Assembly (NCBI RefSeq): GCF_003334385.1
Contig: NZ_QOWN01000126.1
Source of the DNA: Escherichia coli
GTDB lineage: Bacteria; Pseudomonadota; Gammaproteobacteria; Enterobacterales; Enterobacteriaceae
Direction: 5' to 3' (one strand)
Length of the DNA stretch: 1,109 bases
The position numbers were made by a program, and so were the translations under genes. The notes under the pieces are model-generated. The model was not told the DNA's origin and ran no database searches. It saw only the letters and a list, made by a program, of their open reading frames with translations. This document shows positions 135-1,109 of the stretch, piece after piece. The first letter of the stretch is position 1; every line of letters starts with the position of its first letter.

Positions 135-1109
135 GACACGACAAGAAAGAATATAAGTGATAACTATTATATTGAGATTAATAATGGAAATAACCACGGA
201 TTAATCAAAGATAAAAAAAATCATCAAGTGGTGATTGGACCATTTGATATTAGAACAGGATATATTACAACATTAAATAGAAGTGAGGCTGTTGAGGCGC
301 TGAAAAAACTTCAGCCTGGCTCTAATCCTAACGTAATACTGAATTCGCTAAGGTATTCAGTATATACTCCAGAATTGGCTCCTGATAATATTAGCAATCT
401 TACAGATTCATCTGTTAACAAGCTTAAAACTCTAATGGATAAGGTTGCAGGAACAACTAATGAAAAGGGAGAAGTTGTTATAAAAGGAAAAGTTACATCA
501 AAAAATGCTGCGATATATAATTCCACTATTAAGAGTGGAGGTGATACAGATGTTTATCTTAAACTAGTTGATACAAGCCCTGAATTGGCTAACGAATATA
601 ACCGCATTGTAACCAAAATGGATGCAATGAATGATGATGTTGAGTTACTTAACAAGACTACTGCACAGACACAAAAATATACTGAGACAAAAATATCCGA
701 GATTTATGATGATGTGAGAGGTAGTTTGTCTGCGACGGAGATGAAAGCTAACAAATACACAGATCAAAAAGCCACAGAAATTTATGAAGATGTAAAAGGT
801 GGTTTGACTGCGACAGAACTAAAAGCTAACAAATACACAGATCAAAAAACATCCGAAGTTTCAGGGAAAATAGCAAATCTTTCTGGTCGAACTGATCGAA
901 TTGATGCGGCTGTTGGCGCAGTTGATAATAGACTTGAATCCCGCACCACTGTTGGTGTTAATTCCGATGGCACTCTGACCCGTGCAGAAGGGGCTGCCGC
1001 CACTATTGCTGTGAACGATGGCCTGGTTCAGTTGTCTGGTCGTACTGACCGTATTGATGCAGCAGTTGGTGCCATTGATGGCCGTGTCACCCGTAACACG
1101 CAATCCATT
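54..1109 (+). CDS. Secreted fibrous surface protein, putative trimeric-autotransporter-adhesin-like passenger region (N-terminal 352 codons; 3' end beyond window)
   Basis: Manual codon-by-codon translation from ATG 54 gives 352 sense codons with no stop, ending on a codon boundary at 1109. This is improbable by chance in sequence that is about 30% GC. The N-terminus is a canonical Sec signal peptide. Downstream are 26-residue tandem repeats with a Y-x-D motif (ANKYTDQK), which is reported for right-handed coiled-coil stalks of YadA-like adhesins. Family assignment is from motif recognition only; no homology search was possible. Confidence 0.85.
213..220 (+). repeat. A8 homopolymer inside the coding sequence (codons GAT AAA AAA AAT)
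   Basis: Eight consecutive adenines are seen directly. Any functional role as a slipped-strand site is speculative. Confidence 0.4.
621..854 (+). repeat. Tandem in-frame repeat, 3 x 78 nt (26 aa): degenerate copy 621..698, copies 699..776 and 777..854
   Basis: Copy 2 is [26 protein letters not shown] and copy 3 is [26 protein letters not shown]. They share a 27-nt perfect identity (744..770 = 822..848, aaagctaacaaatacacagatcaaaaa) and are about 81% identical overall. Copy 1 ([26 protein letters not shown]) is degenerate but keeps KYTxxK. Confidence 0.75.
879..935 (+). repeat. First copy of the 19-aa motif [19 protein letters not shown]
   Basis: Direct translation. It is paired with the copy at 1032..1088, 153 nt (51 aa) downstream. 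This copy uses AT-rich codons (CGA, AGA, CTT). Confidence 0.7.
1032..1088 (+). repeat. Second copy of the 19-aa motif [19 protein letters not shown]
   Basis: 16 of 19 residues are identical to the copy at 879..935, but only about 40 of 57 nt are. This copy uses GC-rich codons (CGT, GGC, GCC, GTC). Confidence 0.7.

Follow-up and report, generated by a model that had tools for sequence, protein, structure and literature searches.

Why should one adhesin gene of Escherichia coli spell nearly the same 19-residue peptide twice, with starts 51 residues apart, in two different sets of codons? The question is raised by a window of 1,109 nucleotides (the whole stretch of DNA that was analysed), whose initial annotation described the repeat, proposed its first copy as a recombination junction on a compositional boundary, and supposed that a repeat of about 51 residues might continue downstream. 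The gene belongs to the eib family, whose products are associated with serum resistance, adhesion and non-immune antibody binding in E. coli, LEE-negative STEC included. The answer that we favour, with a probability of roughly 0.8 for the explanation as a whole, is that the peptide would be a coiled-coil piece of the Eib stalk, standing on either side of the saddle domain in a prophage-borne type Vc adhesin, that its upstream copy would be the homologue of a segment found before the saddle in many relatives, and that the two copies would have had separate histories at the DNA level.

The gene, its setting and its upstream modules

The window contains the greater part of a trimeric autotransporter adhesin gene (Table 1), read from an ATG and open through the 3' end of the window; the full gene occupies positions 513-1892 of contig L002, and the window positions 460-1568. 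Its 352 residues are a 100% match to the first 352 of P0001, a protein of 459 residues encoded on a metagenome scaffold of 51 kb that is E. coli-like, and the match to phrog_9547 spans the full length. The alignment to the EibD crystal structure (2XQH) covers residues 291-352, with 54 identities out of 62 (E 3e-23), and identifies the saddle and the start of the left-handed stalk. The YadA-type anchor (Pfam PF03895, YadA_anchor) is recognised on P0001, in the same ORF and outside the window, and the NCBIfam model YadA_autotrans matches residues 367-458 (E 6e-19, under its full-length cut-off). A Pfam scan of the 352 residues, motif included, gave no domain with E <= 0.001 and no match to YadA_stalk (PF05662); only faint hits to the DUF7310 coiled coil were seen, over residues 253-295 and 309-345. 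On these matches, the protein is a type Vc trimeric autotransporter with an Eib stalk and anchor module, including a putative Fc-binding aspartate.

Table 1. Features of the window, numbered from its first nucleotide.
Feature	Position	Strand	Basis
eib-family trimeric autotransporter adhesin gene, first 352 of 459 codons	54..1109	+	translation; P0001, EibD and phrog_9547 matches
Conserved 5' flank: 53-nt leader and putative signal peptide (aa 1-27)	1..134	+	nucleotide identity among alleles
AT-rich variable N-terminal head (aa ~28-190)	135..620	+	GC 0.35; AF2 pLDDT ~90
Right-handed-type coiled-coil stalk, 26-aa units	675..878	+	repeat search, period, EibD alignment
Motif copy 1 (aa 276-294)	879..935	+	translation, GC change point, periodicity, homologues in EibA, P0009, P0031, P0035
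Mosaic junction	935..936	+	identity steps vs P0069 and P0009
Saddle beta-minidomain (aa 295-326)	936..1031	+	alignment to EibD 2XQH saddle
Motif copy 2 (aa 327-345)	1032..1088	+	EibD/EibG alignment, DNA identity to eibA
First left-handed stalk heptads, Asn at d (TRNTQSI...)	1089..1109	+	register; continues to YadA anchor past the window

Downstream of the gene in L002, ORFs of 157 and 57 residues are followed by dinI, prfC and osmY-like genes. This order corresponds to the orf156/orf60/dinI arrangement that follows eibA and eibD in the prophages P-EibA and P-EibD, a lambdoid-prophage moron context. The region L002:1981-4723 shows the gene at a prophage edge, with dinI and the prfC-osmY part of the chromosome next to it; 512 nt of contig precede the gene, and the relatives L004 and L006 show a tail-fibre/DUF4376 region upstream. 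Scans of both strands for Rfam families, promoters and terminators returned nothing relevant. Two ORFs on the minus strand, at 861-1103 (80 aa) and 842-1003 (53 aa), overlap the motif region; they were rejected as genes: the sense ORF that they overlap is well supported, they lie where it is richer in GC, and nothing about them speaks for genes.

The allele is rare. It is represented by about 50 sequences in the protein collection and by none of the 5,426 complete E. coli genomes, none of which reached 80% coverage of the window. The best DNA matches in the phage and E. coli collections are genes annotated as eib or 'YadA C-terminal domain', and they extend only over positions 1-123 and from about 902-936 onwards.

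The first of these conserved regions is the 5' flank. Positions 1-77 or 1-123 show 92-100% nucleotide identity across alleles with unrelated heads (EibA, P0069, L008, L029-L033), and the putative signal peptide, read by eye, has an n/h/c layout with an AxA site and is shared with EibA and EibD. The head that follows is predicted by an AF2 monomer model to be a confident alpha/beta domain over residues 30-190. A Foldseek search of this model against the PDB gave no fold match (best E 0.63), BLASTP detected no similarity to the EibA head, and the Pfam scan of the 352 residues found neither a YadA-like beta-roll nor a head repeat. The head is not of the Eib/YadA type; heads vary in the family, so the wider eib-like membership of the protein stands. 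Positions 102-260 have 97% DNA identity to L028, a relative without a saddle. More generally, P0028, P0032 and P0044, as well as L028-L032, share the signal peptide, resemble the window protein in head type and have neither saddle nor motif; in them, a short helix (…RVNDAVVSLDNRTRSNTQAIQ…) leads straight to the left-handed stalk.

Between the head and the repeat lies an upper stalk made of direct 78-nt (26-aa) units at 675-752 and 753-830 (74% nucleotide identity), with a partial third, following the pattern KYT[E/D]xK…ATE[M/L]KAN. Its hydrophobic period of 3.73 is that expected of a right-handed-type coiled coil, and a 10-residue stretch matches the right-handed stalk of EibD. The sister allele P0003/L013 is one 26-aa unit shorter, pointing to copy-number variation in the upper stalk. 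Positions 760-940 had no match in a distant-mode blastn search of the 5,426 complete E. coli genomes, and no donor of the upper stalk and copy 1 was found there.

The repeated peptide and the saddle

The two copies of the motif agree at 16 of 19 residues and at 40 of 57 nucleotides (70.2%), and start 153 nt, or 51 codons, from each other. Positions 1-14 are identical, including an aspartate (D284 in copy 1 and D335 in copy 2), and the three amino acid differences are V/I at a d position and L/V at an a position, both in the core, and N/G at an exposed position. The 16 matches compare with a best of 10 and a mean of 7.2 for 19-mer self-matches in 300 shuffles of the 352-residue protein, and the duplication that was first noticed by inspection is thus confirmed. 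Synonymous changes affect nine of the 16 conserved codons, one more than had been counted at first, and third positions account for 11 of the 17 nucleotide differences. By the Nei-Gojobori method, dS is 1.78 and dN 0.16, a ratio of 0.09 over 19 codons only, in agreement with the earlier proposal of purifying selection on the peptide. The copies share seven identical codons, near the 5.1 +/- 1.5 expected from independent draws on the codon usage of the two gene halves, which indicates that the synonymous sites are saturated and that the DNA keeps no trace of a common origin beyond the peptide itself. Copy 1 (TCTGGTCGAACTGATCGAATTGATGCGGCTGTTGGCGCAGTTGAT) encodes its arginines with CGA, CGA and AGA and leucine with CTT, and also uses GAT, in the AT-rich style of the 5' part of the gene; copy 2 uses CGT for all three arginines, in the style of the 3' part.

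The 32 residues between the copies are the saddle, a non-helical minidomain that links right-handed to left-handed coiled coil (PMC7247746). Since 19 residues of motif and 32 of saddle add up to 51, the spacing is, on the alignment to EibD, that of motif plus saddle; it does not reflect a longer repeating unit. The full-length P0001 has exactly two motif copies, the second being followed by some 50 residues of heptad stalk with asparagine at d and then by the YadA anchor. The downstream continuation of a 51-aa repeat that had been thought possible is therefore not found, and the loose echo between the sequences following the two copies (ESRTTVGV... and TRNTQSI...) disappears on comparison, only 2 of 32 residues being shared against 2.3 in shuffles.

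We compared this arrangement with 120 database relatives, using a strict and a looser pattern of the motif. By the strict pattern, one copy was found in 95 relatives, two in 16, three in four and four in two; copies are spaced by 51 residues where a saddle lies between them and by 42 where it does not, the latter being near-identical tandem units of motif plus stalk. By the looser pattern, a motif-like segment stands directly before the last saddle in 64 of the 120, and 54 of these 64 have no second saddle; the commonest such segment is of the EibA type (LTTRTDKIDAAAAATAAKV). The pre-saddle copies of other alleles are degenerate, matching their own terminal copy at 9-12 of 19 positions. Judged across these relatives, motif, saddle and motif in succession is the usual layout of the family, and the oddity of the window would lie only in the preservation of its upstream copy at 16 of 19 residues.

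P0007 (L010:1001-2134), P0027 and L017:1422-2471 carry three to four tandem units of 42 aa (126 nt), each composed of the motif and the first stalk heptads; these units are nearly identical in DNA, which suggests a recent expansion, and such arrays would multiply the Fc-binding aspartate.

Could the two copies of the window have arisen in a similar manner, a 51-aa unit of motif and saddle having recently been duplicated in tandem within the gene, in an array that continues downstream? Near-identical 42-aa units such as those of P0007 and P0027 show that recent arrays exist in the family, and the 51-aa spacing recurs in the two-saddle relatives P0009, P0031 and P0035. For this allele, however, a recent duplication or downstream array is refuted: the DNA of the copies agrees at only 70% of positions and their synonymous sites are saturated, no saddle precedes copy 1, P0001 has no third copy, and the 32 residues after copy 2 bear almost no resemblance to the saddle. 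We consider this origin very improbable. Even less credible is convergence, by which unrelated coiled-coil segments would have come to resemble each other through heptad constraints only. The copies indeed have no DNA relationship beyond what the peptide dictates, but their identity takes in 11 of the 12 non-core positions, exceeds anything seen in the shuffles, and belongs to a graded series of homologous pre-saddle motifs within the family.

Copy 2 is, from its alignments, the conserved canonical start of the left-handed coiled coil of the family, immediately after the saddle, as in EibD, where the motif occupies residues 379-397. The motif comprises 2.7 heptads with the register L(d) T(a) I(d) V(a) V/I(d) L/V(a). 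In copy 2 and the stalk behind it, the hydrophobic period is 3.54 and the register passes into heptads with asparagine at d (TRNTQSI / EKNSKAI / AANTRTL). The periodicity is 3.5 at both copies, against 3.73 in the upstream 26-aa repeats. The AF2 monomer model is unreliable here (pLDDT <50 over residues 229-320), and it is therefore from periodicity and homology that copy 1 is taken to be helical; they suggest that it forms a coiled coil in the trimer.

The motif also bears on antibody binding by Eib proteins. In EibG, the substitution D391A abolishes IgG Fc binding, and a protein deleted up to and including the saddle still binds IgG Fc (bioRxiv 10.64898/2025.12.25.695649). In the EibG sequence of strain JNEC-KY208, the pair D391-A392 falls within the motif, D391 being its position 9; taken with the D391A result, this makes the motif the beginning of the left-handed stalk and the bearer of the Fc-binding aspartate. 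D335 of copy 2, which is exposed, aligns with D391 of EibG and with D387 of EibD, where the pair is D387-Y388, and the conserved aspartate of RID[A/Y] is present in both copies. The label 'EibE D378-Y388' in the same preprint (bioRxiv 10.64898/2025.12.25.695649) does not fit the EibE sequence, in which the pair is D370-Y371, and is probably a numbering slip, as checked on eibE (L041:970-2433), eibD (L011:965-2500) and eibG (L042:400-1926).

Copy 1 could then be a second functional IgG Fc-binding site, its peptide kept by selection for binding, with two sites per chain, on either side of the saddle. The aspartate on which Fc binding depends in EibG lies in the stretch of 14 positions that is identical in both copies, a single difference (N/G) is exposed, the low dN/dS of about 0.09 goes along with saturated dS, and the pre-saddle copy has drifted in other alleles and not here. 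Nevertheless, the aspartate is also retained where the pre-saddle copy is degenerate, as in EibA and others, and coiled-coil packing alone could conserve such a segment. In EibD, the Fc-binding region reportedly reaches a good way beyond the motif, into the left-handed stalk (2011 work of Leo and colleagues). Copy 1 would lack that downstream stretch, because the saddle comes next. We hold a second binding site to be possible but unlikely. Somewhat more doubtful is an extended version, in which a second complete Fc determinant would have evolved, or been retained, upstream of the saddle and the different codons would prevent the copies from recombining and deleting the saddle. If true, it would mean a doubled antibody-binding valency along the stalk and selection on both peptide identity and DNA dissimilarity. 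More broadly, the duplicated peptide corresponds to an Fc-binding stalk segment, and Fc valency may vary among alleles.

DNA histories and mosaic junctions

Composition separates the two copies. The maximum-likelihood change point of GC content falls at 883-906 (2-log-unit support 853-964), with GC 0.35 before and 0.55 after, which agrees with the initial annotation in placing copy 1 on a compositional boundary; the change point of GC3 lies further 3', at 933-1095. An AT-rich 5' part joined to a 3' module of GC 0.46-0.55 was observed in all 17 family genes checked. The DNA of copy 2 is identical to that of P0069 (57/57) and nearly so to those of EibA and NCTC9112 (56/57 each), and that of copy 1 matches all 16 other copies compared at 36-43 of 57 positions, being identical only in the sister allele P0003/L013. 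By these comparisons, each copy has a DNA history of its own, copy 1 belonging to an AT-rich, allele-specific 5' module and copy 2 to the stalk and anchor module of about 54% GC, which hardly differs from allele to allele, in line with the old or separate origin proposed earlier.

A back-translated 12-residue pattern of the motif gave no match in 100,044 species-representative genomes, and the relaxed pattern G-R-T-D-[KRQ..]-[ILV..]-D-A-A-x-[GA]-A gave only two in the same set, in Marivita and Bifidobacterium, which were regarded as chance matches and rejected as foreign donors. The motif seems restricted to (pro)phage genes of E. coli, no foreign donor having been found in these searches.

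Another explanation can be given for the origin of copy 1: the ancestor would have had two saddles, and copy 1 would be what was left after recombination upstream brought in an EibD-like right-handed stalk in place of the first. Colinear blastn alignments to P0009, P0031 and P0035 reach 876-890 and pair copy 1 with the motif between their two saddles, the end of copy 1 (...LES-RT) resembles theirs (...KVES-RT), and the 10-residue stretch upstream is EibD-like. Yet the DNA of copy 1 is no nearer to inter-saddle copies (36-40/57) than to terminal ones (37-43/57), and no 5' junction was detected, the upstream stalk having no DNA match in the 5,426 complete E. coli genomes. A second saddle in the ancestor is also not required, given how many of the relatives with a pre-saddle motif, those of the EibA type, have one saddle only. 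This ancestry appears rather improbable. We prefer to see copy 1 as the homologue, by position, of the heptad segment that stands before the saddle in about half of the family, EibA included.

Breakpoints drawn from about ten distinct alleles, several of shared ancestry, locate the joints of the mosaic (positions past 1109 are numbered on from the window). Identity to P0069 rises from 30% over 879-935 to 98% over 936-1031, and identity to P0009 from 70% to 94% across 935/936; identity to EibA is 76% in the saddle and 98% in copy 2. From 1033 to the stop at 1433, the gene is about 100% identical to eibA in DNA, with one mismatch, at 1205. Homology at high identity sets in abruptly at 934-936 for P0009, P0035, P0069 and EibD. 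Under stringent scoring, high-identity blocks begin at 934-936 for three allele types, and at 1033-1047 for the EibA group, L015, L010/L017, L026 and EibD. Breakpoints occur elsewhere too, at 464/619, 1164, 1212 and 1248. At the protein level, two unrelated sequences are found upstream of the saddle variant of the window, and two different stalk subtypes downstream of other saddle variants. The edges of the saddle, which are the inner edges of both motif copies, are on this evidence recurrent mosaic boundaries, the events behind them being few and not independent. Copy 1 ends exactly at the 935/936 junction, the 5' side of which shares no homology with P0069. In the triplet of window, EibA and P0069, positions 1033-1204 are identical in all three sequences, so that the crossover of this allele is placed no finer than left of 1247; a crossover at 1032/1033 was rejected as the allele-forming event, the triplet being uninformative over 1033-1204.

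The suggestion that the motif serves as a recombination junction is thus partly supported: the abrupt starts of homology fall where copy 1 ends, not inside it, and where copy 2 begins, and other breakpoints lie elsewhere. The motif itself is part of an element of Eib proteins whose structure and function are already known, a finding that tells in part against its reading as a module-swapping junction.

A conserved 5' flank, a conserved 3' module and AT-rich 5' parts form a pattern that fits cassette exchange. The allele may be the product of a homologous exchange of the passenger cassettes that lie between the leader and signal-peptide flank on the 5' side and the saddle and stalk flank on the other, and the peptide of copy 1 may have been kept by selection for coiled-coil packing, possibly for ligand binding. 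With junctions at both saddle edges and a conserved 5' flank, prophages would shuffle heads, upper stalks and saddles onto one stalk and anchor module. The window is very probably a rare, new mosaic allele of the well-known eib family, and its repeat not a new kind of element. The modular, recombining nature of this family is already recognised (PMC3539135; bioRxiv 10.64898/2025.12.25.695649), and the current understanding of it is unchanged by this allele.

Comparison with known Eib proteins and relatives

EibA (P-EibA, AF151091; E. coli ECOR-9) shares with the window protein the succession of heptad stalk, pre-saddle RTDxIDAA motif, saddle, motif, left-handed stalk and YadA anchor. The DNA of window positions 1-123 is 94% identical to it, and orf156 and orf60 follow downstream in both. 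Its pre-saddle copy (LTTRTDKIDAAAAATAAKV), in contrast, is degenerate, with 10 of 19 residues matching its own terminal copy, its saddle has only 76% DNA identity to that of the window, and its head and upper stalk are unrelated.

In EibD (2XQH/2XZR; Leo et al. 2011, Structure 19:1021), the saddle, the following motif and the stalk align with those of the window protein, and a right-handed-type stretch is common to the upper stalks. The two proteins differ in that the right-handed coiled coil of EibD runs directly into the saddle (…TSEVNEKVEARTTVGV), and in that EibD has a YadA-like beta-roll head, whereas none was detected in the window protein. Ahead of the saddle, the window protein is longer by a net 21 residues, exactly three heptads, than EibD and P0069, whose stalk-saddle joint ends in [A/S]RTTVGV; the additional residues are copy 1. 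The change of periodicity from 3.73 to 3.5 would consequently take place before the saddle in the window protein, and not at the saddle.

EibG (JNEC-KY208, WP_062864037) likewise has the motif after the saddle, with aspartate at motif position 9. It differs in having a single motif copy with a variant C-terminal half (…GSVDRRV), a stalk of the subtype TKNTQAIQ… and an LPBR head.

Finally, P0009, P0031 and P0035, together with P0007, P0027 and L017, resemble the window in using motif and saddle as reusable modules, in 51-aa form with the saddle or in 42-aa form without it. In these relatives, however, a saddle stands before each motif, or else the repeat units arose recently and hardly differ in DNA, whereas copy 1 of the window has no preceding saddle and is old in its DNA.
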